NCBI GenBank assembly: GCA_048499675.1 | Contig: JASNZL010000007.1 | Coordinates: 2,401-66,400, forward strand | Direction of reading: 5' to 3' | Source: Candidatus Zambryskiibacteriota bacterium | Lineage (GTDB): Bacteria; Patescibacteriota; Minisyncoccia; Phycocordibacterales; WO2-35-19 | Length of the DNA stretch: 64,000 nucleotides | Notes under the pieces: generated by a model | The model's database searches: none | What the model was told of the DNA's origin: nothing | The model's input: the letters and a program-made list of their open reading frames with translations, nothing else | Part shown: piece by piece, positions 2,689 to 63,908 of the stretch | How positions within the stretch are numbered: position 1 is the stretch's first letter | Layout of the letters: each line of letters begins with the position of its first letter | Position numbers and translations under genes: made by a program

Positions 2689-3912
2689 TTAAAAATTAAT
2701 AAAGACTTCTTTCATTTGTTCAGCTATCAAATCCCAATTGTATTTTTGTTTTACCATATTAAAAGCATTTTCTACAACTTGGTTTCTGTTTGAATCATTC
2801 AAAACTCTATTGACAGTTTTCGCAATACTCTCTGGATTTTCTGGTTCACAAAAGTATCCAGTTTGCACTTCTATACCACTTTGCAGTGGCTTCGCGAGAT
2901 CTACGAGAAAATCTGGTATACCACCAACTGGTGTTGCAATCACAGGAATTTTACAAGCCATCGCTTCAACAAACGAAATGCCGAAACCTTCAGAAAGTGA
3001 TGGTCTTATAAAGATATCACAAGATTTCAAATATTTTGGAAGTTCATTGTGAGAAACAAATCCCAAAAAACAGATTCGAGCTTGGAGATTGGAGCTTAGA
3101 ACTTTTTGTTTTAATGCCTCCTCTAGAGACCCAGATCCCAAAATCACAAATTTAACATTGTCCGGTAAAAATTTTAAAGCATCTATCACATCTCCCACCC
3201 CATTTTTCTTCACCAACCTCGACGATGTCACAAGCGCAACATCATTTTCTTCCATTCCCATTTCCTTTCTGATTTTTTCTCGTTCTTCGTAACTCGTATT
3301 TCGTACCTCAAATTTATCCACATCTACTCCATTCGGAATTATGCTCACTTTCCCCTCATACCCAAACCTTTCCGCCCTATCTTTTAGAAACTGGCTAAGC
3401 ACTGTAAGATGATAAGTTCTTTTGAGAGCCATCTTCCAAGAAAAATTGATGAGACCAAACCAACGTTTGGCAAAATGTTCTTCTGAATCACCTTCTTGGA
3501 GGTTTAAAATTATTGGTACTTTATGTTTAGAAAAAATATTTGCAATATAAGCCCCCCCAGAAGCAAAGGTCGCCATAATGCACCAATAAAAATCATAATG
3601 ATTTATATTATTTAATTTTAGTGTTTTTAATGCGCCCCAAAAAGGGAGCAATATTTTATCCAAAGTTTTGAAACCAGATCCAACTCTATAAACAGAAACA
3701 TTCCCTATTTTTTCAAATTTTGGGAGTTTCCTATCAAATCGCGCTGTAATCATATCAAACTGTAGATCTGAAATCCTGTCTGTTATTTCTTTGACCGCCA
3801 CCTCTGCCCCACCCACAAATGGGTAATATGCCGTTGAAAATATGAGTATTTTTTTTGATTGTTCCACAGCATTAAGCATATCAAAAACACTCCCCCTTAT
3901 CCAATTATCCAA
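2689..3912 (-). CDS. Glycosyltransferase family 4 (GT1 superfamily)
   Basis: C-terminal EGFGISFVEAMACKIPVIATPVGGIPD motif, which is the EX7E/GT4 signature. Confidence 0.8.
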   Translation of the reverse strand: MDNWIRGSVFDMLNAVEQSKKILIFSTAYYPFVGGAEVAVKEITDRISDLQFDMITARFDRKLPKFEKIGNVSVYRVGSGFKTLDKILLPFWGALKTLKLNNINHYDFYWCIMATFASGGAYIANIFSKHKVPIILNLQEGDSEEHFAKRWFGLINFSWKMALKRTYHLTVLSQFLKDRAERFGYEGKVSIIPNGVDVDKFEVRNTSYEEREKIRKEMGMEENDVALVTSSRLVKKNGVGDVIDALKFLPDNVKFVILGSGSLEEALKQKVLSSNLQARICFLGFVSHNELPKYLKSCDIFIRPSLSEGFGISFVEAMACKIPVIATPVGGIPDFLVDLAKPLQSGIEVQTGYFCEPENPESIAKTVNRVLNDSNRNQVVENAFNMVKQKYNWDLIAEQMKEVFINF

Positions 3913-3978
3913 GGGCTACCCTTGGAAGAGTTTTACCCTTATTTTTCAACACCAAAAACATCCAAGGGTAGCCCTTGG
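3909..3978. repeat. REP doublet (REPIN-like): two 17-nt palindromes, CCAAGGGCTACCCTTGG and CCAAGGGTAGCCCTTGG, separated by a ~36-nt spacer
   Basis: Perfect 7-bp stem palindromes. The same unit recurs at 37036-37120 and 37843-37919 flanking the RAYT gene, and a variant occurs at 4599-4672. Confidence 0.8.
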
Positions 3979-3989
3979 ATGTTTTTAGT

Positions 3990-4238
3990 TTATTTGTAAT
4001 GATTCGTAATTTGAAAAACTTCCATCTCTCCATTTTTATCAACAAAACATAGGGCTCTGTATTTTCTATCTAAACGAAAAGAAAATATACCTCTCCACTT
4101 TGGCTCAAGTAGCTCAAAATTCAATGAGGGATGTTTATGATTTTCTACAAACAAAGTGGACCTTTTTATCCACTTTGTAAACAAATTTCTTTTCTTTAGA
4201 TAGGTAATTAATTCTTTTCTAAGAGGTTTTATCTGCAT
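3990..4238 (-). CDS. Type II toxin, RelE/ParE superfamily (YoeB/Txe-like)
   Basis: 82 aa with C-terminal …HPSLNFELLEPKWRGIFSFRLDRKYRALCFVDKNGEMEVFQITNHYK, matching the YoeB pattern (…FSRRI..HRLVY…YHY). It sits immediately downstream of a small partner ORF. Confidence 0.6.
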   Translation of the reverse strand: MQIKPLRKELITYLKKRNLFTKWIKRSTLFVENHKHPSLNFELLEPKWRGIFSFRLDRKYRALCFVDKNGEMEVFQITNHYK

Positions 4239-4450: not shown

Positions 4451-4598
4451 TACTTTATTATATCATATTTTTATATATTCAGCCACAGCAAACTCCATTC
4501 ACCCCGTTTATCTCACAATTTTCAATTTTCAATTTTGAACCCACCCATTCATAATTTTCAATTTCCAATTTTCAATTTTCAATTAACCCAACACAAAA

Positions 4599-4672
4599 CA
4601 CACAGGGTAGACCTGTGTAGATTTTTGTCGTTATTTTTCAACACTTTCAATCACACAGGGCTACCCTGTGTG
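4599..4672. repeat. Degenerate REP doublet (CACACAGGGTAGACCTGTGTAG … CACACAGGGCTACCCTGTGTG)
   Basis: Variant of the CCAAGGGTAGCCCTTGG palindrome with the shared TTATTTTTCAAC spacer. Together with 3909-3978 it brackets the toxin-antitoxin module. Confidence 0.6.
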
Positions 4673-12520: not shown

Positions 12521-12674
12521 ATGTTATTATTTTTCAATTTTCAATTTAGAATTTTCATTAAATTTTCAATGATCCAATTTTTAATTTTGTATTTTATTTA
12601 TAATTTTCTTTACGTTTTTTGTTTTGATTTTTGTTCTATAATTTTTTATTTGGGATTTGTTTAGTATTTCGGGT

Positions 12675-21638: not shown

Positions 21639-22467
21639 CTGTCGTATTGCCCCAATTACTTGAGGGGTCGGACTATATCTTCACCCTTATTTTATATAAA
21701 ATAAGGGGTTCGGCGTATTAGCATGAAGTCTAGCTTCACACTCCAACCACTTAAGGTTAAGTCTCTACGGGGTCATAACCCAATTTATATTTCATGGACG
21801 GAATAATATTATTTTCTATAATTCCAAATAATTTCGAAATACTAGATGTCTTAAATCTAATTCTGTAATACTCTTTATCTTTATTTAGAGTCCCCTCTAA
21901 ACCAAATTCTTTTAGAGACCGCAATAATTTCTCTTGGTCACTTTTTGAAAATTGTTGAGTATTCAGATACACATTATTTTTTCCACATCTACTTCCGTCA
22001 TCCATAAACCATACTGCCAATATTATTGGATCTAATTTTAGATCAGGAATACATTTTTTCTTATTCCTATAAAACAAATCCATCATTTTGGTAAATTCAG
22101 GATGTTGTTTGGTAAAGAATCTATATGCAATCCGCGCACCATTTCCTTTTCGAGATTTTGGTCCACTTCTTGATAAATTTTTTAAGATTGAGAATTTCCA
22201 TTCAACATACTCTTTTTGAGTTATTGAATGATTAACTTCCAAAAATGCATTTTTTCTTCCTTTTACTCGACGAATATATCCGTCTCCTAAAAGAGTTCCG
22301 ATAATAAATGACTTCTGTAATTGAGTTAGACTTCCCTCGGTATTGTCCATATTACTAATTATATCATTTGATATAACGCCTGTTTATGGAGTCCACCGAT
22401 ATAAGCCAAATTTTTTTATATGAGATTACTCTCATAGGCACCCCGATGTGTTGTAACAACAAGTTAA
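21639..22467 (-). mobile_element. Group I-like intron in 23S domain V (after …GGCACC; E. coli ~2449 site) encoding a LAGLIDADG homing endonuclease
   Basis: The exon resumes at CGATGTCGGCTCATC. The insert contains a 594-nt ORF. Confidence 0.65.
21757..22350 (-). CDS. LAGLIDADG homing endonuclease (two-motif type)
   Basis: LLGDGYI and WFMDDGS motifs; located inside the 23S intron. Confidence 0.8.
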   Translation of the reverse strand: MDNTEGSLTQLQKSFIIGTLLGDGYIRRVKGRKNAFLEVNHSITQKEYVEWKFSILKNLSRSGPKSRKGNGARIAYRFFTKQHPEFTKMMDLFYRNKKKCIPDLKLDPIILAVWFMDDGSRCGKNNVYLNTQQFSKSDQEKLLRSLKEFGLEGTLNKDKEYYRIRFKTSSISKLFGIIENNIIPSMKYKLGYDPVET

Positions 22468-23017
22468 GGTGCCGAACTCCGCCGTCGCTCTGGACGCTTA
22501 GGCGGAACCAGCCTGTTATCCCCGGAGTAGCTTTTGTCCGATAATCTTTTGCCGCGTCTAACGCGAACAATCGGTTCACTTAGCTCTGCTTTCGCATCTG
22601 CTCCTCATGTACGAGTTGCAGTTAAGCCAGCTTGTGCCTATACACTATCGCCATGGTTTCCATTCACGGCTAGCTGACCTTAATAGGCTCCTCCGTTACT
22701 CTTTGGGAGGATAGCGCCCCACTAAAACTGCCCACCAGACACTGTTTCTTTACGTTTTTGCCGTAGAGATTAGAAAATATATCAATACAGAGTGGTATTT
22801 CACTGACGACTCCATGCTCCCCAAAAGGAACACTTCAAAGTCTCCCACCTATGCTACGCAGTAAAAACATATCCTCAATGCCAAGTTGCAGTAAAGCTTC
22901 CGGGGTCTTTTCGTCTAACTGCAGGTAACCGGCATCTTCACCGGTATTGTATTTTCACCGAGCGAGTCCCCGAGACAGTTCCCCAGTCGTTACACCATTC
23001 GTGCGCGTCTGAACTTC

Positions 23018-23373
23018 ATGTCTCGTTTTTTGTTTGCGTTATCAATCGCAAACTTACGATTTCTCTTATTTCTAAGAGCATAGACTATATCTTCATCTTA
23101 AGAGAACCTATAAATTTTATCTTAAGAGTCGGCGTGTTATAACAATGTTTTCTCAAATTTAATTGAGGCATTTGCTATCCGTTCATTTCTGAACAAGTCG
23201 TTACGGGTTCACGATTTGTCCAAATTAATATTTGGTCACAAATCGCAATTCCCACGGTATTATCTTTCCTTCAACATTCTTATCCTTGAATAAGAACTCC
23301 AGTTAAGACTTCACCGTTATTAGCCGAATTTTTTCATCGAGATTACTCTCGAAGCTGGCAATTCAATTACCAG
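23018..23373 (-). mobile_element. ORF-less intron-like insertion in 23S domain IV (after GGTAGCGAAATTCCTTGTC; E. coli ~1931 site)
   Basis: The exon resumes at AAGTTCAGACGCGCACGAATGG. The insert is ~356 nt. Confidence 0.5.
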
Positions 23374-23399
23374 ACAAGGAATTTCGCTACCTTAGGACG

Positions 23400-24148
23400 A
23401 TTCATTTCTTTTTATTACTCAGTTAGTAGCTACTGAGAGCCTCATTGTCGCCAATGAGATCGGACTATATCTTCCCAAAATGATTTCTCGCTTTAGGTCT
23501 AGCGTATAGTCTCTGAGGATTTTCTGATAAGGAATTTTTATAATCTTTTAAATTATACTTCCTTGTTCTTCCTTTTCCTTCGTTCAATTTCTCTCGAAGT
23601 TCTACAACCTTTAACATTCCGTCATTACTTAAATGTTCTTTTTTGAAAACCATTTTTGCAATTTGGGAGAAGATTGAGAAATTTTTCTTCTTATTTGAAG
23701 AAAGAAAAGAATATTTTTCAAAGAAAGGTATTATCCTTTCTTCAATAGCGACAGGATTCTCTACTACGTAGTAGCAAACCCCGTCTTTTCGTTCTTGCAA
23801 TCTTCCACATCCTAAATGATGTTTCATTAACGCAAGAACAGTTTTGTCGCGTTGAGCAACATTTAAAGTCAGTACCACTTGCCATCCAAGAGAATGATCT
23901 TCTCTTTTTCTTAGTGAGACATTGAAGCTTCCTTCTCCGTCCACAAAGCCAGCAATATAGTTTCCTATATTTTGAGGAATTGACTTAAGCCACGAAATAT
24001 CTTTCATTTTTAATTCGTTGCTTATCAGAATCTTTCCTGCGGATTGTCTGCACCGCTACATTTTTACTGCCATTTCGATTTATGACGAGTAGTAGACGGA
24101 TACTCAGAGTTTCCCGCATTTAGCTAGATTTTATAACTACAATTATCC
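23400..24148 (-). mobile_element. Intron-like insertion in the 23S (after GGCGATAACTATAA; E. coli ~1917 region) encoding a LAGLIDADG endonuclease
   Basis: The exon resumes at CGTCCTAAGGTAGCG. The insert contains a 543-nt ORF. Confidence 0.55.
23465..24007 (-). CDS. LAGLIDADG homing endonuclease (single-motif type)
   Basis: YIAGFVDGEGSF motif; located inside the 23S insertion. Confidence 0.75.
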   Translation of the reverse strand: MKDISWLKSIPQNIGNYIAGFVDGEGSFNVSLRKREDHSLGWQVVLTLNVAQRDKTVLALMKHHLGCGRLQERKDGVCYYVVENPVAIEERIIPFFEKYSFLSSNKKKNFSIFSQIAKMVFKKEHLSNDGMLKVVELREKLNEGKGRTRKYNLKDYKNSLSENPQRLYARPKARNHFGKI

Positions 24149-24389
24149 TTATAGTTATCGCCGACATTCACCAGGGCTTACAACAGTCAGCATACATCAT
24201 GCTGAGTACGAGAATTTTCAATTTGAAAATTCATACGCAGTATGATGTACACCGCCATTGTTTAACCTTCTGGCATTGGTCAGGTGTCACCCCCTATACA
24301 TCCTCTTACGAGTTCGCAGGGAGCTGTGTTTTTGATAAACAGTCGCCAGGGATTCTTTAGCTGCGGCCCAACCGCACCTCGCTACGCTC

Positions 24390-24520
24390 GGGCGGAATTC
24401 TCAATTTTTAATTTTTAATTTTCATTCAATTTTCAATGTATTAATTTCAAGTTTTTAACATTGTAAATTAGAAATTATTTGAAAATTTTAAATTGTAAAT
24501 TTTAAATTCCGTGCCGAATG
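24390..24520 (-). repeat. AT-rich intervening sequence (IVS) in the 23S, family member with similar termini
   Basis: Flanked by CCTCGCTACGCTCGGGCGG and CCGTGCCGAATGCAATGAGGCACGG, with an interior of AATTTTCAATTTT-type repeats. Confidence 0.6.
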
Positions 24521-25089
24521 CAATGAGGCACGGTCGGGCAGGCCTTATACCGAAGGTACGGCCGCTTTTTTGCCGAGTTCCTTGGGGACCTCTCACTCGT
24601 TCGCCTTGGTCTTCTCGACCTGACTACCTGTGTCGGTTTACGGTACGGTCTATTTATGCTTAACCTTAGAAGATTTTCTTGGAAGCGTGCTTTACAAACT
24701 CTTATCTGCCGAGGCTTCAAATTGTCATACTGCTTGAGGTGCAATTAAATGCAGTCTTGCGGATTTACCTACAAGACACCCTTACAGCACAAACGCAAAT
24801 CCAATAATGCGCTTTGTATACTACACTCCGTCTCTCCATCGAACATAAACAGGTGCAGGAATATTAACCTGCTGTCCATCGGGTCCGACTTTCGTCATAC
24901 CCTTAGGCCCGACTAACCCTTCCCTGATTGTCATCGGAAAGGAAACCTTAGTCTTTCGGCGCGCGCAGTTTTCATGCGCGTTGTGGTTACTTGTGCCAAC
25001 ATTCTTACTTCGTAACGCTCCAGCATGGGTCACCCCTTTGCCTTCACAGCGGATACGAATACTCTCCTACCGCGCCAGCCACACTACGC

Positions 25090-25250
25090 TACGCTCCGTG
25101 CGCTGGAATTTTCAATTTAAAATTTTCAATTTTCAATCAATTTTCAATGTCTTAATTTTGAAATTTAGAAATTAAGAATTTAATCATTGTTTAGAAATTA
25201 GAAATTAAAAATTAGAAATTCCGCACGAAATGCAATGTAGTGCGGCCGAC
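25090..25250 (-). repeat. AT-rich IVS in the 23S, family member
   Basis: Flanked by CACTACGCTACGCTCCGTGCGCTGG and CCGCACGAAATGCAATGTAGTGCGG. Confidence 0.6.
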
Positions 25251-25318
25251 ACCCTCAGTTTCGGTACATAGCTTAGCCCCGATTATCTTCGGCGCAGAAT
25301 CTCTGAATGAGTGAGCTG

Positions 25319-25361
<43 letters not shown>

Positions 25362-25940
25362 CATTGTCGGAGAAATTTCACCACCTTAAGTGCACTTAGC
25401 TATGATTTAGGGACCTTAAATTGAGATCATGGGCTGTTTCCCTTTTGACGAACGGAGCTTAGCCCCCGCCGTCTAACTGCCACGCTTTCACCCACACACT
25501 AAGTTTTCGATAGTTTTCAACGCGCTTTGCGCAATCAAAAACTTAGTGTGCGGGTTAACTATTGGTATTCGGAGTTTGATAGGTCTAGCGAGATTTCTCC
25601 CTGTCCAGACCTTCCAGTGCTCTACCCCCAATAGGAACGCGTGACGCGAACCCAAAAGCTCTTTCGGAGAGAACCAGCTATTACCAGGTTCGATTAGCTT
25701 TTCACTCCTTACCACAGGTCATCCGAAGGAATCGCACGACCAACCGGTTCGGGCCTCCATCTCGCTTTCGCGAGACTTCACCCTGCCCATGGCAAGCTCA
25801 CCTGGCTTCGGGTCTAATGTATACGACATAAAATTTCGCGCTATTCACGCTCGCTTTCACTATGCCTAACGCGGGTCGACCGCTTCGGCTGCCACATACA
25901 TTAACTCGTTGGCTCATTCTTCAATAGGCACGCCATGACC

Positions 25941-26111
25941 GTCACACCTCGCTACACTCGGTGACGGAATTTTCAATTTAAAATTTAAAATTTAAAAATA
26001 ATTTTCAATATCCCAATTCTCAATTAAGAAAATGGAAATTTAATCATTATTTAGAAATTAGAAATTAAAAATTAGAAATTCCGTTGCAACGAATGCACTG
26101 AGGTGCAACGG
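25941..26111 (-). repeat. AT-rich IVS in the 23S, family member
   Basis: Flanked by GTCACACCTCGCTACACTCGGTGAC and CCGTTGCAACGAATGCACTGAGGTGCAACGG. Confidence 0.6.
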
Positions 26112-26166
26112 CTCTGACTCCTTGTAAGCATATGGTTTCAGGTCTATTTCACCGCCCTCACCGGGC

Positions 26167-26208
<42 letters not shown>

Positions 26209-26646
26209 TAGAAATATATTTAGCCTTACCGGTTAGTTCCGGCAGATTCCCCCGAGCTATTCGTGTCTCGAGGTACTCAAGAACAACAGCAAAAAAGATT
26301 ATTTGTTTTCGACTACGGGGCTATTACCCTCTGGGGCGCTTCTTTCCAGAAGCTTCTTCTAACAAATAATTTTGTAACTTTTCTCGTATAAATACGACGC
26401 TATCGTCTTACAACCCCCGCACACTCACTTTGTCATCGTTGCATTGTGTTTTTATAAAATTTCATTGCACATCCGATTAGCTACCGAATCTTAAATTTCG
26501 TTTACTATCAAAGATGCAACAAAACACAATGACAAAGTGAGTGTGCGGGTTTGGGCTTCTCCGCTTTCGCTCGCCGCTACTCACGGAATACTTTTTAGTT
26601 TCTTTTCCTCCTGGTACTGAAATGTTTTACTTCCCAGGGTAAGCTC

Positions 26647-26805
26647 CGTGCCTCACTACCGCTCGTCACAAAATTTTCAATTTTTAATTTTGTAATTTTC
26701 ATTGAATGTTCCAATTTTAGAATTTTCAAATTGAGACATTGAAAATTTATTGGAAACTGAAAATTGATACTTGAAAATTAGTGCTGAACGAAAGTGAAGC
26801 ACGGT
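26647..26805 (-). repeat. AT-rich IVS in the 23S 5' domain, family member
   Basis: Flanked by CCGTGCCTCACTACCGCTCGTCAC and GTGCTGAACGAAAGTGAAGCACGG. Confidence 0.55.
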
Positions 26806-27523
26806 CCTCGCAAAGCGAGGGGGTTTCCCCATTCGGAAATTTCCGGATCAAAGGTTGCTAGGCACCTCCCCGAAACTTATCGCAGCCACGCCACGTCCTT
26901 CATCGCTATTTCTAGCCAAGGCATCCACCATATGCTCTTAAATTTCCTATTAGGAAATTCAAAAACCACTTGTCCGATCATTTTAATTTAAAATGATTTA
27001 GGACTTAATTATCCTGTCTTACAAGACTACAATCATCCTGCAAGACCTTTGTCTCCATATGCCGAGCTTTTTTCTCCAGCATACAGAAACTACAATATCC
27101 TGATACAAAAAATATATCAGGAAGTCCACTTCCAACAAACAAAGACCCCTTCGACTCGCTACGCTCGCTCAGGGTAAACCCTCAGCAAAAAGAAGCTCAT
27201 CAAAAAGCGATGTTGTAGTGGAATGTACCCAGTAGTAGATTTTGGCATTGAGCAAGCTCACACATACGCAAGCGTATGTTATGCCAAAATTCACTACTGG
27301 GTTTATTTGTCAAAATACAATCGTTCCGAATTTTGTCTTCTCTACCCTGTTCTTAATTTTAGCAAGCTAAAATTAAGAACAGGATTTTGAATCATTATCT
27401 TACTCAAAAAAGAACAAAAAAATCCACTTCTCTCGAAGCGGGCTCAAACCAAGCCAAAGGGTTTTTTCTACCCTCTTTTTCGCTTCGTAGTTAAAAATCT
27501 CAATAACATAATTTGTGCTATCT

Positions 27524-30061: not shown

Positions 30062-30176
30062 ATTTTTATAAATTTTTAATTTTGTAATTTTTAATTTTAA
30101 TCAATTTCCAATTTTTAAAATTTTCAAATTAAGACATTAAAAATTTAATGTAAAATTGAAAATTCTAAATTGAAAA

Positions 30177-30662
30177 TTATTTCTTCTCTGCTATTTGATT
30201 TAGAGCAATTGCATATCTCTGGATTGGAGAATTTATTATGTTTACAAACATTCCTCTTAGAACTTGCAATGAAGGAATAGAAGCGATGCTTACCATCTCT
30301 TCTTTTGTTTTGTATTCACCATCATAAATACCACCAACTATATTAATTTTATCTGCAAGTTTTTTTTGGAATGAGAATATTTCTCTCGCTGGAGCAAGCA
30401 AATCTTCTCCGTATGCAAGCGCTATCTCGCCTGACAGACTTGGCATTTCACCTTTTACCTTACTTTCATTTAAAACTTTTTTTATTAAAGTTTTTTTGGC
30501 AACTGTATAACCAACATTTTCTTTTTTTAGAGATCTTCTTACTTCTGAAGCATCGGCAACTGTGAGTTTATCAAAATTGACAAAAACTACAGAATTAGAG
30601 TTCCCTAAAAGATTTTCTATCTTTGAAACAATCTCTTGTTTCTTTTGTTTTGTTATGGCCAT
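30177..30662 (-). CDS. rplJ: 50S ribosomal protein L10
   Basis: N-terminus MAITKQKKQEIVSKIENLL…VVFVNFDKLTVADASEVRRSLKK. Confidence 0.85.
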   Translation of the reverse strand: MAITKQKKQEIVSKIENLLGNSNSVVFVNFDKLTVADASEVRRSLKKENVGYTVAKKTLIKKVLNESKVKGEMPSLSGEIALAYGEDLLAPAREIFSFQKKLADKINIVGGIYDGEYKTKEEMVSIASIPSLQVLRGMFVNIINSPIQRYAIALNQIAEKK

Positions 30663-37035: not shown

Positions 37036-37120
37036 GAACACACCAAGGGTAGCCCTTGGATAATTTTAATGTTGAAAAATAAGGGTAAAAACACACCAAG
37101 GGCTACCCTTGGTGTGTTTT
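37036..37120. repeat. REP doublet (ACACACCAAGGGTAGCCCTTGG … CCAAGGGCTACCCTTGGTGTGT) flanking the RAYT
   Basis: Same palindrome and GTTGAAAAATAAGGGTAAAA spacer as 3909-3978. Confidence 0.8.
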
Positions 37121-37129
37121 TGGTGTGTT

Positions 37130-37816
37130 TTAAGATATTTTTGGTATATTATCTTTAAAAAGAAGCCAGAAGTTTATAAAATCATCAAAATCAGAATCTT
37201 TAAAATAATCTGGAAAAACTTCTTTATTCAAAATTGTATGTTGTGGTCTTTTTTCACCAGTTGGATTTATATAGTCCCCATAACTTGAATATTTATAAGA
37301 ATCTAAATATTTTTTAACCATTTCTAAATTACTAATCCCGCCCTCCCTCCAATTAGGTTCAATGATTTTTACTGGATTTAAGTGAATATATGAAAATAAA
37401 TATTTTAAATATTCATCTCTTGTGACATGTTCAGCTTTGAATGGACCTTGAAAAAGTGATCCGTTTCTTTTGTATTTTTTATTAAAATACATTGAATATG
37501 AAGTTTGAATTTTTTCCATAAAAGAACTTACTCCGCCATCAAATTTTGCCCTAACTAATATATGAAAATGGTTAGGCATCAAACAATATGCTCCAATATC
37601 AACCAACGTCTCTTCTCTATCAAAAACAAATCTCATTTTTTTTGAAATATTTTTTAAAACAATTCTATTGACAGAATTAAAAAGATAGAGTGTTTCCAAA
37701 AATCTTTGGTGATCTTTGTCTGAATAAAAAATAATTCTTTTATCTGTTCCCCTATTGTATATGTGATAATATTCTTCTTGCGAAAATTTTATTTTTCTTT
37801 CCATACTAATATACAT
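37130..37816 (-). CDS. REP-associated tyrosine transposase (RAYT; IS200/IS605-like Y1 HUH transposase)
   Basis: HUH motif NHFHILV and catalytic-Tyr motif YIHLNPV. Flanked on both sides by REP doublets. Confidence 0.75.
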   Translation of the reverse strand: MYISMERKIKFSQEEYYHIYNRGTDKRIIFYSDKDHQRFLETLYLFNSVNRIVLKNISKKMRFVFDREETLVDIGAYCLMPNHFHILVRAKFDGGVSSFMEKIQTSYSMYFNKKYKRNGSLFQGPFKAEHVTRDEYLKYLFSYIHLNPVKIIEPNWREGGISNLEMVKKYLDSYKYSSYGDYINPTGEKRPQHTILNKEVFPDYFKDSDFDDFINFWLLFKDNIPKIS

Positions 37817-37842
37817 AAATTATATTACTATCCACAAATTAT

Positions 37843-37919
37843 CCAAGGGCTACCCTTGGATAATTTTAATATTGAAAAATAAAGACAAAAACACACCAAG
37901 GGCTACCCTTGGTGTGTTT
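37843..37919. repeat. REP doublet flanking the RAYT (two CCAAGGGCTACCCTTGG copies)
   Basis: Sequence match to the other REP copies. Confidence 0.8.
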
Positions 37920-37938
37920 GGGGGGAATTTGGCAATAC

Positions 37939-37966
37939 AAAAACCCGCCGTGAGGCGGGTTTTTGT
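37939..37966. terminator. Bidirectional rho-independent terminator
   Basis: AAAACCCGCCGTGAGGCGGGTTTTTG. Confidence 0.6.
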
Positions 37967-38014
37967 GAGCATTATCACTAACCGAAATCGGTGATAATCA
38001 CAAGTGCTCTTAGA

Positions 38015-41465: not shown

Positions 41466-41843
41466 TCTGCAAAGCTTATGGGATCGAACTGAGAACTTAA
41501 AGACTGGGTTATTAGAGTAAAATTACACAAAAGACAAACACCAGAGCACAAATAAAACACACGCAACAAATCACAAATTAGAAAGTGACCCAAATCGTTT
41601 TAATGCTAGTATTTGTGTTTTGTAATTTATTTGGGTTCTGGGTTTTGTTTATTGAATTTTTTAGAATAATTAGGTTAATTAGAAATTAGAATAATTACTT
41701 GTCCCCAGGAACTTTAGTGAAGTGGGAGAATAATTAACTTAAGAGTAGGTAGATAATGATTCCAATTCTCTTTACTTTCAGCTCTTAGATATCACCTTTT
41801 AACACTCTCAATCCCCTATATTAAAAAGCATAAAATATGTTAT

Positions 41844-56205: not shown

Positions 56206-56416
56206 GTTTAAAAGTTAGAAAGGCATAGTTGTAATTATTCTAATTTCTAATTAACCTAATTTCTAATAAAATACCAAGGAACAAATCCCAGAATCCAAAT
56301 AAATTACAAAGCACAAATTTCAAATTTTACTAAGTTTTGGGCATTTGTATTTTGAATTTATTAATTGTTTCGGATTTTGGATTTAGTATTTATTTTAAAT
56401 TCGTGTGATTAGCGGG

Positions 56417-59400
56417 TTATTTTATTTTAATTTTGAATTTATAATTTCCAATTTTTATTTCTTCTCCATCCACGGCACCCAAACTAAATTCGATAATATT
56501 TGTGGGTTTTGAAATAGTAGAAAAATTTGATTCAAAAAACTTTTTTCCTTCTTCACTTGTTTCAATAATAAGTTCTATTTTGTCATTTGGTACTAAACCT
56601 TTTTCTTTTCTTAATTCCTGAATACTTCTTATAAACTCTCTCGCATTCCCCTCTTCTTCCAATTCCTTTGTTATTTCCGTATCCAACCAAACTTCTTCCT
56701 CCATGTTTCCATCAAAAGCCACTTCCTTAACATTTACCTCCTCTTTAATTAGGTTTGTGTGTTCTTCCTTATTTTTTAATTTTGAATTTTTAATTTTTAA
56801 TTTATTTAACGGTTGTCTCACTTTTATTCCTGCGCTATTTCTTTTTTCCATCGCTAGCGAGACTATTTTTCTCACTTCTTCCATTTTTTGATTTAATTCT
56901 TCATCCGCTACAACATTCTCAAGCGTAGACCACTCTTCCAAATGAACACTTTCTTTTTTGTCTCCAAAATTCAAATCTTTATAAATTGTTTCTGCAAGAA
57001 AAGGCATAAACGGCGCAAGAATTTTTGAAAGTTCTATCAAAACAAAAAGTGTGGTTTCTCTTGCTTTCTTTTGATCTTCAAAATCTTCTGATTTAAACCT
57101 ATCTCTTGATCTTCTCAAATACCAAGTTGAAAGGTCTTCCACAAACCCTCTTATTGGCCGACCCGCTTTGACGGTATCGTATTTTTCTAAATTGAGAGTC
57201 ACTTCAGTGTGCAATTCTTTTAGTCTTGAAAGGATCCATCTGTCCAAAACATTATCCGAGTTTGTATTTGGTTTTATGTTGCTCTCGTATGTTTTATAAA
57301 AAGCTACAACGTTTAGTAAAATATTTATAAGTCTTTGGTAGACTTCCTTTACATCGTCATCCCTAAAATTTAAATCTTCTGCCTGCATAACAACGGATGT
57401 CATAAGGTAGTATCGCAAGGCGTCAGCTCCATATCTATCAATTATCACAAGAGGGTCTGTATAATTGCCTTTGGACTTGCTCATTTTCTCACCATCGCTT
57501 GCAAGAATTGTTCCTGTCGTCACGACATTTTTGAATGGTTCATGGCCAAAAATTCCAACCGCAAGCGCATGCATATAATAAAACCACGTCCTTGTCTGGG
57601 CAATATACTCAGCAACAAAATCTCCGGGGCTTCTTTTTTCAAACTCCTCTTTATTTTGAAATGGATAATTGTATTCAGCAAAAGGCATTGAGCCAGACTC
57701 TACCCAACAGTCAATAACTTCGGGAATTCTTGTGAGTTTGCTTCCATCCTCATCTACAAGCTCTATTTCATCAATGTACGGTCTATGTAAATCAATCTCG
57801 TAGTTTTTGTTATGTGGAAGCGGGACAAAGTTTAGTTCTCCAAATTCTGCTGTTTTAAATCTGTATTGTTTTTTTTCTTTTATTTCTTTTCTTTGTTCTT
57901 TGTCTAAAACGTAAGCAGAACCAAAGAGAGCATTTATTGTGCCCTGATGACTAACTATTAAAATATTTTTACCTTTATATTTATTCTCTAAATCGTATAT
58001 AAAATCTCCGACTCGTATATGGAGACTATCGAGAGACTCTACACCTTCTATATTTTTTTCATACTTTTCTCTTTCTGTTTTGAAGTTGCTATCAAACTCT
58101 TTCCAAGTTTTGCCTTCATAATTTTTACCAATTTGGTATTCAGTTATTCTCTCATCTACCAAAATATTTTCTTGATTCAGACCAAAATGCTTAGCTATAA
58201 TTTCTCCAGTTTCTACACATCTTGTTAAAGGCGAAGTAATGATTAAATCTATTTTTTTGTTTTTTATATCAGATGCAACTACCGAAACTTCTCTTTGGCC
58301 CTCCTCCGTTAAATGAAAAACATTATTGGGATCTGCGTTTACGAAGTCTTTTAGATTAGCTTCTGACTCTCCATGTCGCATTACAAAATATTTGTTTCCA
58401 GATTTCTTGACATATTTTTTTAATTCTTCTACTCCGCTTATAACTTTTACTTCTCCTTTATCATTCTTCCATATAGGTAAAGGTGAGGCCCAAAATCTAT
58501 TTCGGCTAATTGTCCAATCTGGCGCTTTTTCTACTATATCTCTAAATCTTCCATTTTTTAAGTGAGCCGGAACCCAGTTTATATTTTCGTTTTTGGAAAG
58601 CATTTCGCTTTTTATTTTTTGAATATCTATAAACCAACTCGAGAGCGCGTTGTAAATAAGTGGAGTGGAACATCTGTAACAATGTGGGTAAGAGTGAGTG
58701 TTTGGTTTTTTATCAAACAAAAGACTTCTTTTCTCCAAATCTTCTATGACCATTTTTTCTGCTTTTTTGATGTAGACACCTTTTACGAATTCCGGAGCAT
58801 TGTCGTTGTAGTGACCATTTGAAAGAAGGAGCGGGACCATTGGCAAATCTGCTTTGAGACCTAACTGGTAGTCGTCTTCTCCATAAATTACAGCGGTGTG
58901 CACAATGCCTGTCCCCTCTTCCGTATTTACAAAATCAGCTGACAAAACATACCACGCTTTTTTGCCTGTATTTTTTACTGCATCCAAATGATAAAGTGGC
59001 TCGTATTCTAAACCAGCCAAATCTTTGCCTTTTATTTCTTTTTTTATTTCATATTCTTGCCCACCGAAAATACTTTCTACTCTATCTTTTGCCAATATGT
59101 AATTTTCTTTAGTGCTTAGTGCTTCGCTTTTTTTAACTTCGACTATTACATAATCAATATCGTCCCCCACCGCCAAAGCAACATTCGCTGGAAGTGTCCA
59201 TGGGGTTGTCGTCCAAGCCAACAGATAGCTATTTTTAAATTTTTCATTTTTAATTTTAAATTTTATAGTGACCGCTTCTTCTGTGACATCCTTGTATGAA
59301 TTATCCATAGCAATCTCTGCTTTTGAGAGAGGAGTCTCACATCTTGGACAATAGAGCAAAACTTTCCTGCCCTCGTAGAGCATTCCTTTTTTTTGGATAT

Positions 59401-59881
59401 GGGAAATCGCCCACCAAACACTCTCGGTATAGCTTGTATCCATCGTCTTGTAGGAATTATCAAAATCTACAAAACGAGCAAGTCTATCTATATATTTTTT
59501 CCAATCGTTAACATAGGTCAAAACTTGAGACCTACATTCTTCGTTGAACTTTGCAATCCCCATCTCCTCTATATCTTTTTTGTGTTTGAGTCCGAGTTTT
59601 TTCTCTACTATGTTTTCTACTGGAAGTCCGTGACAATCCCAACCCCACCTTCTGCGAACATTGTAGCCCTGCATAGTTTTGAAACGCGGGAAAAGATCTT
59701 TGGCGGTTGAACCGAGTAAATGTCCGTAGTGAGGTAATCCTGTTGCAAAAGGGGGTCCATCATAAAAAACAAACTCCCCTTTAGGTGAAGGTTTCTCTAA
59801 TGTTTTTTCAAAAATTTTATTTTCCTGCCAAAATTTTAAAATTTCTTCTTCTTGCTGTGCAATTTTACTTTTTTCTGTCAT
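56417..59881 (-). CDS. ileS: Isoleucyl-tRNA synthetase carrying an inserted histidine-phosphatase (PGAM-like) domain
   Basis: HYGH and KMSKS class I motifs, CP1 editing domain and anticodon-binding domain. Residues ~497-690 form a complete RHGE…SHQG histidine-phosphatase domain (FVMRHGESEANL … LIVSHQGTINAL). It is inserted between …WTISRNRFWASPLPIW and …DCWVESGS. Confidence 0.85.
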   Translation of the reverse strand: MTEKSKIAQQEEEILKFWQENKIFEKTLEKPSPKGEFVFYDGPPFATGLPHYGHLLGSTAKDLFPRFKTMQGYNVRRRWGWDCHGLPVENIVEKKLGLKHKKDIEEMGIAKFNEECRSQVLTYVNDWKKYIDRLARFVDFDNSYKTMDTSYTESVWWAISHIQKKGMLYEGRKVLLYCPRCETPLSKAEIAMDNSYKDVTEEAVTIKFKIKNEKFKNSYLLAWTTTPWTLPANVALAVGDDIDYVIVEVKKSEALSTKENYILAKDRVESIFGGQEYEIKKEIKGKDLAGLEYEPLYHLDAVKNTGKKAWYVLSADFVNTEEGTGIVHTAVIYGEDDYQLGLKADLPMVPLLLSNGHYNDNAPEFVKGVYIKKAEKMVIEDLEKRSLLFDKKPNTHSYPHCYRCSTPLIYNALSSWFIDIQKIKSEMLSKNENINWVPAHLKNGRFRDIVEKAPDWTISRNRFWASPLPIWKNDKGEVKVISGVEELKKYVKKSGNKYFVMRHGESEANLKDFVNADPNNVFHLTEEGQREVSVVASDIKNKKIDLIITSPLTRCVETGEIIAKHFGLNQENILVDERITEYQIGKNYEGKTWKEFDSNFKTEREKYEKNIEGVESLDSLHIRVGDFIYDLENKYKGKNILIVSHQGTINALFGSAYVLDKEQRKEIKEKKQYRFKTAEFGELNFVPLPHNKNYEIDLHRPYIDEIELVDEDGSKLTRIPEVIDCWVESGSMPFAEYNYPFQNKEEFEKRSPGDFVAEYIAQTRTWFYYMHALAVGIFGHEPFKNVVTTGTILASDGEKMSKSKGNYTDPLVIIDRYGADALRYYLMTSVVMQAEDLNFRDDDVKEVYQRLINILLNVVAFYKTYESNIKPNTNSDNVLDRWILSRLKELHTEVTLNLEKYDTVKAGRPIRGFVEDLSTWYLRRSRDRFKSEDFEDQKKARETTLFVLIELSKILAPFMPFLAETIYKDLNFGDKKESVHLEEWSTLENVVADEELNQKMEEVRKIVSLAMEKRNSAGIKVRQPLNKLKIKNSKLKNKEEHTNLIKEEVNVKEVAFDGNMEEEVWLDTEITKELEEEGNAREFIRSIQELRKEKGLVPNDKIELIIETSEEGKKFFESNFSTISKPTNIIEFSLGAVDGEEIKIGNYKFKIKIK

Positions 59882-59955
59882 TCCTCAATAGTAGCCGATT
59901 TCTCTCACTTTTTCAAAAGATTTTGTATTTTGTTTTCTATCTCTTGTGCTTAATC
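59879..59955. repeat. Direct repeat copy 1 (~75 bp, includes GAGGAA-ATG of ileS)
   Basis: cattcctcaatagtagccgatttctctcactttttcaaaagattttgtattttgttttctatctcttgt, repeated at 60451-60527 with one mismatch. Confidence 0.85.
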
Positions 59956-60060: not shown

Positions 60061-60453
60061 CTATCTGATAAAATTTCTCAATTTTTCTCTCATTTTTACA
60101 AAAATATCTGGAGCGATTTCATATAATTTTCTTTTCAATCTTTTTACACTCACAAGCTTCATTTGAGCCAAAATAACAGAAACTTTTTGATTATTTGGGT
60201 CTGTAAAATTGAAGTAAAAATCAAATTTCTTTTGTTTAGTAGAAAGTGGAACACACCAAAACATATGATTGTTAAATTTCTTAATAACAAGGACTGGTCT
60301 TGAAAAATTATCACCGCTTCCATTTTGCTCATACCCAATATTTTTACCAATTGAAGACATCCAAACTTCCGCTTCTTTCGGAAAATAATTAGGAGAACCA
60401 TTTTCAAACTGTATTTTCTTTTTAAGTTCGTTCCATGAGTCGTATTCGTTCAT
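60061..60453 (-). CDS. PemK/MazF-family toxin (mRNA interferase-like); no adjacent antitoxin
   Basis: …EAEVWMSSIGKNIGYEQNGSGDNFSRPVLVIKKF…CVPLSTKQ… matches the PemK/Kid pattern GEIW…G.EQ.G.RPVLIV…VPVTS. Bracketed by the ~75-bp direct repeats. Confidence 0.6.
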   Translation of the reverse strand: MNEYDSWNELKKKIQFENGSPNYFPKEAEVWMSSIGKNIGYEQNGSGDNFSRPVLVIKKFNNHMFWCVPLSTKQKKFDFYFNFTDPNNQKVSVILAQMKLVSVKRLKRKLYEIAPDIFVKMREKLRNFIR

Positions 60454-60527
60454 TCCTCAATATTAGCCGATTTCTCTCACTTTTTCAAAAGATTTTGTAT
60501 TTTGTTTTCTATCTCTTGTTTAATCGC
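60451..60527. repeat. Direct repeat copy 2 (overlaps the last 17 codons of the RT gene and supplies GAGGAA-ATG of the MazF-like gene)
   Basis: See copy 1. Confidence 0.85.
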
Positions 60528-63032: not shown

Positions 63033-63908
63033 TTAGAGCGTATTTAGAAATTTTTTTATCTCCTCAAACTCCTCTGGCAAAGCCGATTCTACTTTTATAT
63101 GAGTTCCGCTTGGTAATTCCAATTTTATAGAAACGGCATGAAGCATTAATCTTTGCTTTTTCTTATCGTAACTCGTATCTCGTAACTCGTGCTTCATGCC
63201 CCCATATACTTTATCTCCTACGACAGGGTGCCCTATTGATTTCAAATGGACTCTAATCTGATGAGTTCTGCCAGTTTTTGGTTTTACTTCTACATAAGCC
63301 CCCACTTCGCCAAGGCTACGCGGGGTAAATAACCCTTGAGCTAAAACCTTGTATCCTGTGACCGCTTCCCTCAACTCCCCTTTTGCTCCATACTCTGCTG
63401 ACCACTTTCTAAAATCAGAAGCGCTCCGCCCAATTGGTTTGTCTATCACCCCTTCCAATTTATCTTCATTAAATTTACCCCAAACTACAGCGTGATAAAT
63501 TTTCTCTACTTTTCTAGCTTGGAATTGCTCTTTGAGATATTGATGAGCTTCTTTGGTTTTTGCAACCAAAATAACTCCACTTGTATCTTTGTCCAGTCGG
63601 TGCACTATCCCCGGTCTTTTTATGACTTCACCATTTTGTAAAATTTGTTCTTCCCCAACATCCTTAAGTTCTGGGTAATTTTGAAGAATCCAATCAGTCA
63701 AAGTTTTTTCTTTGCTCCTACTATCGGAACCTGCCCCGCGATCTGCGTCAGCTGATTTTGCGGAACCTGCCCCGCGATCTGCGTCAGCTGATTTTGCGGG
63801 GCTTGCCCCGCGATCTGCGTTAGTAGATTTTGCGGGGTGAACCAAAAGCCCACAAGGTTTATCAAGAGCCAATATATATTCGTCTTCATACAATATTTTT
63901 ATTTCCAT
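63033..63908 (-). CDS. RluA-family pseudouridine synthase with an in-frame 3 x 36-bp GC-rich tandem repeat insertion
   Basis: VHRLDKDTSG catalytic motif and RTHQIRVH motif. The repeat at 63727-63834 encodes (AKSADADRGAGS)x3. Confidence 0.8.
   Translation of the reverse strand: MEIKILYEDEYILALDKPCGLLVHPAKSTNADRGASPAKSADADRGAGSAKSADADRGAGSDSRSKEKTLTDWILQNYPELKDVGEEQILQNGEVIKRPGIVHRLDKDTSGVILVAKTKEAHQYLKEQFQARKVEKIYHAVVWGKFNEDKLEGVIDKPIGRSASDFRKWSAEYGAKGELREAVTGYKVLAQGLFTPRSLGEVGAYVEVKPKTGRTHQIRVHLKSIGHPVVGDKVYGGMKHELRDTSYDKKKQRLMLHAVSIKLELPSGTHIKVESALPEEFEEIKKFLNTL

Follow-up and report, generated by a model that had tools for sequence, protein, structure and literature searches.

Does a lone transposase-like gene in a candidate-phylum bacterium form a functional couple with the short palindromes that stand in pairs on either side of it? 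We address this question for the locus at positions 37,036 to 37,919 of a 64,000-nt stretch of Candidatus Zambryskiibacteriota DNA (contig JASNZL010000007.1; hereafter the window, meaning the whole stretch). REP-associated tyrosine transposases (RAYTs; REP, repetitive extragenic palindromic sequence) serve as the standard example of a domesticated transposase that coexists with mini-elements of its own, and are known mainly from Proteobacteria, Cyanobacteria and Bacteroidetes. The first-pass annotation of the window had called the locus a classic RAYT/REPIN association (REPINs being REP doublets that form hairpins) in a type of genome in which such associations are not usually reported. We consider it highly probable that the locus is a RAYT-type gene with a cognate, dispersed hairpin, and our analysis leads us to lean, less firmly, towards the protein itself being what moves the hairpins. 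The system would then be a REPtron of a new type, in which a low-copy, mostly vertically inherited gene for a RAYT-class HUH/Tyr (HUH, His-hydrophobic residue-His) single-stranded DNA nuclease is bracketed by a cognate hairpin. The cognate element would be the minimal perfect palindrome CCAAGGG-N3-CCCTTGG, which in the lineage of the window is packaged as a REPIN-like doublet of ~90 nt with a conserved spacer.

The description of the genome as an unusual host holds up. Judged by sequence, the source genome is a member of the Patescibacteria, or Candidate Phyla Radiation (CPR): the close relatives of the open reading frame (ORF) and of its neighbours all come from Patescibacteria/CPR metagenome-assembled genomes (MAGs; labelled Paceibacterota, Parcubacteria, Yonathbacteria or 'Saccharibacteria'), and the 23S rRNA gene of the window spans 4.5 kb against 2.9 kb in the model, with ~1.6 kb of insertions. 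The G+C content of the window is ~35%. A literature search tied RAYT or TnpA_REP to CPR taxa nowhere, apart from one automatic KEGG annotation, and the hairpin sequence appears neither in any paper found by that search nor in the REP table (Table S1) of PMC6006769. The gene label itself is not new, because automatic annotation already names some homologous proteins 'REP element-mobilizing transposase RayT'; what appears to be new is the hairpin, its coupling to this class of protein, its conservation and its intragenic spread.

The protein and its family

The probable true start of the gene is the ATG at 37804, which gives a protein of 224 aa, since homologues begin with MERK. Both motifs on which the first reading had relied are present in the ORF, PNHFHILV for the HUH and SYIHLNPV for the tyrosine. 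NHFH occupies residues 82-85, YIHLNP residues 143-148, with Tyr143 as the predicted catalytic residue, and a further motif, YSSY, residues 176-179. All three are invariant or almost so in alignments of 24-30 homologues, P148 being invariant and Y143, H145, L146 and N147 conserved in at least 90% of the sequences. The Pfam model Y1_Tnp (PF01797) matches at 42 bits (cut-off 23), and when clustered at 50% identity the family comprises 424 clusters for E <= 1e-30 and 18,665 for E <= 1e-3. An AF2 model of the protein (pLDDT 79, pTM 0.81) has as its top Foldseek match in the PDB the chain 4ER8_A, E. coli TnpA_REP bound to a REP; the similarity is modest (E 2.6e-4, probability 1.00, TM 0.44/0.58), and the TnpA proteins of IS608 and ISDra2 are the next matches.

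The tyrosine motif is of the type Y-x-x-x-N-P, not Y-x-x-x-Q, and the former is the signature of class 2 TnpA_Y1 proteins (PMC6006769). Motifs and predicted fold together support placing the protein in the RAYT class and not in the IS200 class. Its motif set matches that of subclass 2.1 (Quentin et al. 2018), which corresponds to RAYT group 1 (Bertels et al. 2017) and to TIRYT/TIRtron (Di Nocera et al. 2013; TIR, terminal inverted repeat). The published signature of this subclass is NH[YF]H / FQ / Y[IV]HLNP / SS in a protein of ~238 aa with ~58-67 aa between HUH and Tyr (PMC6006769). Here we find NHFH, FQ (LFQG/LFEG) replacing a conserved W, YIHLNP, a downstream Ser-Ser motif, a distance of 60 aa from H83 to Y143 and a length of 224-228 aa (~225 aa, the likeness in length extending over ~225-240 aa). 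The assignment to subclass 2.1/TIRYT would be signature-based, made by published motifs and not by phylogeny, and the protein departs from TIRYTs in two respects: the flanks of the gene do not fit GGGGWSAS, and Pfam gives no match at E <= 1 in the protein to a C-terminal helix-turn-helix (HTH) or to Bac_DnaA_C, HTH_23 or HTH_28.

Four distant homologues (P0298, P0312, P0324 and P0374) carry variable insertions in the loop ahead of the HUH strand. These insertions hold the recurring peptides LEVQP / EVEPQ and, twice, VRGETSD, and the peptides resemble translated palindromic repeats such as GAGGTT-N-AACCTC.

A hairpin beside the gene and away from it

The palindrome on both sides of the gene is 17 nt long, with a perfect 7-bp stem and a 3-nt loop. 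Its pattern, CCAAGGGNNNCCCTTGG, has six exact copies in the window against 0.05 expected from dinucleotide-preserving shuffles, none of 100 of which reaches six. The two doublets bracketing the ORF are confirmed, and the inventory grows by two solo doublets that the first-pass annotation had missed, ~33 kb distant from the RAYT gene, one with canonical hairpins (the 3909 doublet) and one of a variant family (the 4600 doublet; Table 1). The start-to-start spacing of the hairpins is 53 nt inside each of the four doublets. The spacer, which had been said to be conserved, is so in part: only the left doublet and the 3909 doublet carry GTTGAAAAATAAGGGTAAAA unchanged, whereas the right doublet has ATTGAAAAATAAAGACAAAA, with 4 differences. 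The 4600 doublet has a related spacer, GTTGAAAAATAACGACAAAA, and a stem, ACACAGGG/CCCTGTGT, that departs from the canonical one by compensatory changes; a spacer core, GTTGAAAAATAAGG, is kept in seven doublets of four lineages. The flanks of the hairpins are ACA/TGT, TAT/ATA or CAT/ATG in the window, and outside it they differ from lineage to lineage.

Each of the four doublets has a much more stable fold than shuffled controls (z -7.4 to -8.5), and where the two loops are opposite, TAG in one half and CTA in the other, as in three of them, the whole unit forms a single long hairpin. One of these is the left doublet, 3' of the gene: its opposite loops and ACACA/TGTGT flanks let it fold as a single REPIN-like hairpin (-31.6 kcal/mol, z -8.5), and its inner hairpin, 17 nt past the stop codon, looks like a two-way terminator. 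The right-hand doublet, 5' of the gene, with its inner hairpin 38 nt upstream of the probable start codon, carries the loop CTA twice and folds into two separate 14-bp hairpins. Over 88 nt the flanking doublets share 86% identity, and they stand to each other as a direct and not as an inverted repeat.

All eight hairpins of the window are intergenic, none lying inside a gene, and all stand between co-directional genes; the idea that doublets would be found between convergent genes finds no instance in the window. The 3909 doublet occupies a gap of ~110 nt, with an 82-aa RelE/ParE-like ORF ending on one side (stop at 3990) and a glycosyltransferase gene beginning on the other (~3879); the 4600 doublet lies between the stop of a gene resembling that of a type IV coupling protein (T4CP; 4726) and the start of a 69-aa ORF (4450). 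Rfam has no family at the hairpins.

In relatives, hairpin and gene are found together from whichever side the search begins. When 185,579 species-representative genomes were searched for the 17-mer, it turned up at 68 loci, of which ~26 are single matches in unrelated phyla, at about the level of chance, and the rest come from ~12 Patescibacteria MAGs; a RAYT homologue (35-69% identity) stands directly beside the hairpin in six of these loci, and the 53-nt doublet register is absent from all 68. A metagenome scan by the doublet pattern alone returned 17 loci, 10 of them with an adjoining RAYT gene. Among loci found by protein alone (numbered with the prefix L), L069 (96% identity) and L070 (85%) have the hairpin, while L071 (69-70%) has the compensatory variant CCAAGGA-CTG-TCCTTGG and L101 (59%) the form CCAAGGG-GTC-CCCTTGG, in each case on both sides of the RAYT gene. 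Across 16 RAYT loci (35-96% identity), a hairpin lies 6-38 nt upstream of the start codon in 15 and within -38 to +29 nt of the stop codon in 13, and in four of them the loop, TAG or TAA, is itself the stop codon of the gene. Some RAYT genes hold the hairpin within their own ORF, where it encodes QG[VM]PL.

What stays constant across lineages is the stem CCAAGGG/CCCTTGG, altered only by compensatory substitutions, with loops that vary freely. In the P0102 clade (57% identity) a different 7-3-7 hairpin, TCCAGGT-TWA-ACCTGGA, is found at the start of the gene, at its end and in neighbouring genes (Table 1). Hairpin and protein clade change together, the pattern that an enzyme paired with its substrate would produce. 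In the MAG CAZMFR01 a second RAYT paralogue, of 35% identity, lies 2 kb from the intact one, at L024 2129-2731 (also L077 56-634). In the L024 copy neither the HUH (now NRYD) nor the catalytic Tyr (now RRVHLYP) survives, and yet the gene still closes with a hairpin, the TAG loop of which provides the stop codon. At L023 and L062, where the hairpin is present and the gene absent, no RAYT remnant was found.

The hairpin is also dispersed into coding sequence. The MAG CAZMFR01 contains ~40 exact copies against ~1e-4 expected by chance; 27 of the 40 lie inside long ORFs, and at least 19 in ORFs with Pfam-verified domains (GatB, FolD, YchF, a Mur ligase, FtsK, MiaA, TruB, an AddA/UvrD-like helicase and an ATP-grasp protein), and RecG carries the hairpin in a different MAG. 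Intragenic copies often consist of 2-3 tandem units of 24-28 nt, and because a whole triplet has a length divisible by 3, its copies fall into three different frames (QGLPL / PRATL / KGYPW). In the GatB alignment, three units of 28 nt stand in a row (84 nt together) and are translated, one per frame, as QGLPL...PRATL...SKGYPW; orthologues of GatB with 75-84% identity are without the array, one at 81% has a decaying copy, and at a second GatB site the same triplet occurs in several relatives.

These copies bear on an alternative that we consider unlikely, namely that the hairpins are primarily regulatory elements of the host (two-way terminators, mRNA stabilisers or sites for a dimeric protein), spread by recombination or slippage, with the Y1 protein a domesticated binder or incidental. 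Several copies in the window do have A-run/T-run flanks and are terminator-like on both strands (6 against 0.6 expected), the core is conserved across lineages, unlike that of species-specific REPs, and tandem arrays with identical spacers would fit local duplication. A terminator or operator role is implausible, however, for hairpins that lie within conserved housekeeping ORFs and are read there in every frame, and the PG_binding gene upstream of the RAYT gene already has a canonical terminator of its own. The bracket of hairpins around the gene is kept in all but one of the 16 loci, and the switch of hairpin sequence with protein clade argues for a specific coupling. With the hairpin read as the cognate element of a RAYT-type gene, a secondary role in the host is plausible all the same, since several window copies score as two-way terminators.

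Directly past the PG_binding gene and ahead of its terminator stands a second conserved hairpin, ATTATCAC...GTGATAAT (Table 1), which may be a structured element of the 3' untranslated region.

Inheritance of the locus and fate of the doublets

The RAYT gene keeps the same neighbourhood upstream of rplJ-rplL. The order orf247 - PG_binding - RAYT - variable surface-protein genes - L10/L12 - orf205 - mechanosensitive (MS) channel recurs at L071, L047, L067, L086 and L101, and the RAYT gene has diverged to much the same degree as L10, orf205 and the MS channel: identities to the window for RAYT, L10 and MS channel are 69%, 67% and 73% at L071, and 44%, 47% and 50% at L086. The 64-kb window has one copy of the RAYT gene, and no tnpB adjoins it. 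Conserved neighbourhood, parallel divergence and single copy together fit a vertically inherited RAYT gene and not an IS200 element.

An autonomous element of the IS200/IS605 type, in which an ordinary TnpA would transpose a 0.9-kb unit with the doublets as its subterminal hairpin ends, is for this reason very improbable. It would account for the Y1_Tnp domain, for the flanking doublets as same-strand direct repeats, like the left-end and right-end (LE/RE) hairpins of IS608, and for two changes in the cassette between the hairpins. At L007 the cassette is inverted relative to the same neighbours; at L069 (1-874, against window 37090-37951) it has 95% DNA identity to that of the window, whereas the flanking DNA reaches at most 79% and the flanking proteins 35-54%. 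Of the 3' doublet at L069, one and a half hairpins are left after a collapse. The contrast between cassette and flanks there may be due to exchange of the cassette between lineages by recombination, or to hypervariable and fast-evolving surface-protein neighbours. The TnpA proteins of IS608 and ISDra2 share the HUH Y1 fold and recognise hairpins at element ends, but the Y---Q motif, the dimeric short proteins, the multicopy autonomous elements, the distinct LE/RE ends and the frequent tnpB of the IS200/IS605 group are unseen here. The protein has Y---NP in place of Y---Q and scores 14.7 bits with the NCBIfam transpos_IS200 model against a cut-off of 55, and its gene occupies the same neighbourhood in genomes whose RAYT and housekeeping genes, diverging side by side, retain 44-69% identity. 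Hairpins moreover occur without the gene, as solo doublets and as the many copies of the related MAG. The first-pass identification of a RAYT with its own repeats survives on both counts, the hairpin being found away from the gene as well as beside it and the protein being other than an ordinary IS200 TnpA.

The solo doublets show a presence/absence polymorphism. The relative L098 keeps the order T4CP-like gene - 69-aa ORF - 82-aa ORF - glycosyltransferase, with proteins 57-77% identical to those of the window, and has 32 nt and 0 nt in the two gaps that hold the solo doublets in the window; both doublets are absent. They were accordingly either inserted in the lineage of the window or deleted in that of L098. 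Along with the GatB orthologues that differ in their arrays, the collapsed doublet of L069 and the inverted cassette of L007, this polymorphism speaks for mobility of the hairpins.

The two small ORFs between the solo doublets form a probable toxin-antitoxin pair (Table 1). Its similarity to RelE/ParE, Txe/YoeB and HigB is weak and below threshold, JGI names homologues Txe/YoeB toxin, and tblastn found no match to a second RAYT or pseudogene between the solo doublets. The proposal that doublets are the ends of RAYT-mobilisable cargo cassettes, the pair having been moved as a unit like the RAYT gene, draws on the same-orientation doublets 690 nt apart around the two ORFs, mirroring the 800-nt bracket of the RAYT gene, but it can largely be dismissed on the evidence of the empty site L098, where antitoxin and toxin stand between the same T4CP and glycosyltransferase genes with almost no intergenic DNA, and of the unrelated loci L099 and L100, where homologous pairs are without such hairpins. 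Since L098 keeps the order without doublets, the pair was not brought in by them but stood there already, and it was the doublets that were gained or lost. At L100, in an unrelated genome, the homologous pair is flanked on both sides by a different repeat of ~110 nt, TTCGCGTCCTGGAGCCTTC...AAACCTCTAAGTCTCAAAGGCTCGAAGCTTA (2470-2765 and 3245-3755).

Known systems, a proposed mechanism and other features

The REPtrons of E. coli (yafM, subclass 2.2) and of Pseudomonas and Stenotrophomonas (subclass 2.5) are alike in many respects to the RAYT-type gene and hairpin described here. They share the HUH and the single catalytic Tyr in Y-x-x-x-N-P, the fold closest to 4ER8, low copy number, vertical inheritance at a conserved locus, a gene bracketed by hairpins that are also dispersed singly, in pairs and in clusters, and co-variation of protein and repeat between clades. 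The differences lie mostly in the hairpin: that of the window is without a GT[AG]G guide at its 5' foot, it is a 17-nt perfect stem with a free loop where canonical REPs measure 20-40 nt, its core is common to many lineages whereas classic REPs are species-specific, and many copies are intragenic in the genomes of some relatives. The protein is ~60 aa longer, ~12% identical to 4ER8 and below the NCBIfam cut-off for RayT. What remains of the 'classic' association is thus a RAYT-class gene bracketed by a hairpin that is also dispersed; the epithet itself does not fit a hairpin with no GT[AG]G foot, a core shared across lineages and flanking doublets that are direct repeats. The GTAG that some loops create was considered as a displaced guide and rejected, as the loops vary freely among lineages and GTAG in TAG loops is accidental.

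The intragenic copies recall Rickettsia palindromic elements (RPEs) and intragenic REPs, in that in relatives, not in the window, palindromes lie in frame inside essential genes without disrupting them. RPEs measure 100-150 bp, whereas the Patescibacteria units have 25-28 nt, often come as triplets and have a cognate Y1 gene; we know of no dedicated transposase for RPEs. With REPINs (Bertels & Rainey 2011) the doublets share the build of two inverted hairpin repeats and a spacer, conserved as a whole, and three of the four in the window fold as one. They are unlike REPINs in that one window doublet has both halves in the same orientation, and since each half is a complete perfect palindrome, its orientation is set only by the loop and the flanks. 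For TIRYTs (PMC3733652), Di Nocera et al. noted self-complementarity in some TIRs, which make up repeat families of moderate abundance, arranged as dimers or clusters.

A mechanism can be drawn from homology with E. coli TnpA_REP and with IS200/IS605 TnpA (PMC3479197, PMC8266576): (i) the protein would bind the hairpin where single-stranded DNA allows it to extrude, as at replication forks; (ii) a metal bound by His-x-His and Tyr143 would cut beside the hairpin, leaving a 5'-phosphotyrosine link; and (iii) the protein would rejoin the strand at another site. The outcome would be new copies, tandem arrays, deletions and inversions such as are seen between relatives. In the lineage of the window the mobile unit would seem to be the ~90-nt doublet, of which further copies would have reached other sites of the chromosome. 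We infer the nuclease activity, the cleavage site and the role of the protein, as opposed to some other process, in moving the hairpins.

Several points weigh against the RAYT reading and against the mobility proposed with it. The enzymatic activity of the family is a prediction from homology. All characterised TnpA_REP enzymes need a GT[AG]G guide (PMC6006769, PMC8266576), and because the hairpin has none, recognition and cleavage are not directly transferable; a dimeric protein, moreover, could bind so perfect an inverted repeat in double-stranded form. The HMM search proposed at first pass came out halfway, in that the NCBIfam RayT model REP_Tyr_transpos (NF047646) outscores that of IS200 at 49.2 bits (49 against 14.7) but stays under its own cut-off of 80. 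Single-sequence and profile searches of the PDB gave no significant match. Subclass 2.1 has been reported without REP-like sequences nearby (PMC6006769), unlike the Patescibacteria loci, where the hairpin bracket is the rule. Only four doublets are visible in the 64-kb window, and in the near-identical strains L092, L096 and L097 the doublets are fixed, with point changes and no insertion polymorphism. The purely vertical picture, finally, is weakened by the L069 cassette, which may have moved between lineages.

With these points in mind, we put forward a wider proposal that we hold tentatively and regard as plausible, if short of likely: a large, Patescibacteria-wide clade of 'long' RAYT-like proteins with the subclass-2.1/TIRYT signature would have a guide-less 17-nt hairpin as its substrate, the pair would be inherited at a single locus beside rplJ-rplL, and the hairpins would colonise both intergenic DNA and essential coding sequence, the latter as frame-restoring triplets. 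If this is true, some of the lineage-specific insertions that characterise proteins of these reduced genomes would stem from the hairpins, and the in-frame arrays in gatB, folD, ychF, ftsK and other genes of relatives offer a testable mechanism for insertions that lengthen CPR proteins and make them diverge. A conserved version of the system in host-dependent Patescibacteria of ~1 Mb would mean that such systems persist in very streamlined genomes, and the 'REP-less' class of long RAYTs would become linked to a defined hairpin. For biochemistry, the locus would supply a very small, sequence-defined pair of protein and single-stranded DNA hairpin. The in-frame arrays also call for caution in gene calling and alignment in CPR genomes.

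Table 1. Coordinates of the gene, hairpins and other features in the window, and of related loci elsewhere (window positions unless a locus is named)
Feature	Location	Strand	Remarks
RAYT-like Y1 HUH nuclease gene (predicted)	37130..37816	-	228-aa ORF; Y1_Tnp, motifs, fold match
Doublet 3' of RAYT gene (left)	37043..37112	+	Hairpins 37043-37059 (TAG), 37096-37112 (CTA); 36-nt spacer with GTTGAAAAATAAGGGTAAAA
Doublet 5' of RAYT gene (right)	37843..37912	+	Hairpins 37843-37859, 37896-37912, both with loop CTA
Solo doublet	3909..3978	-	Hairpins 3909-3925, 3962-3978; opposite orientation to flanking doublets; exact spacer core
Solo doublet, variant family	4600..4671	-	ACACAGGGTAGACCTGTGT (4600-4618, innermost pair broken) and ACACAGGGCTACCCTGTGT (4653-4671)
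Probable toxin-antitoxin pair, 69 and 82 aa	3990-4450	-	Bracketed by two solo doublets
Second conserved hairpin	37968-37998; L070 2560-2590; L071 9870-9900; L007 2995-3035		Stem sequence varies by lineage, pairing kept
P0102-clade hairpin loci	L102 8207-11555; L103		Overlaps start codon and C-terminus; inside neighbouring UvrD-like and KsgA genes
In-frame intragenic hairpin loci	L024 250-1869; L020 4576-5541; L041; L061; L043; L011; L019; L010		MAG CAZMFR01
In-frame intragenic hairpin locus	L009		MAG JAHIER01
23S rRNA gene	22429-26953	-	~1.6 kb over bacterial model; internal AT-rich repeats; ORF at 23465-24007
AT-rich periodic repeats, example sites	4537-4586; 12525-12586; 25103-25211; 30067-30180; 56755-56828
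88-nt inverted repeat pair	41611-41698 and 56231-56318		85% complementary, 14.5 kb apart
75-nt direct repeat	59873-59947 and 60445-60519		96%; upstream of two adjacent genes
Three tandem 36-nt units	63725-63832		Inside an ORF

No 16S gene is present in the 64-kb window; a 5S gene and a tRNA come after the 23S gene. The window holds repeats of other kinds as well (Table 1), of which the periodic AT-rich repeats of the type AATTTTCAATTTTCAATT (families D1-D8) occur in many intergenic regions and inside the insertions of the 23S gene.

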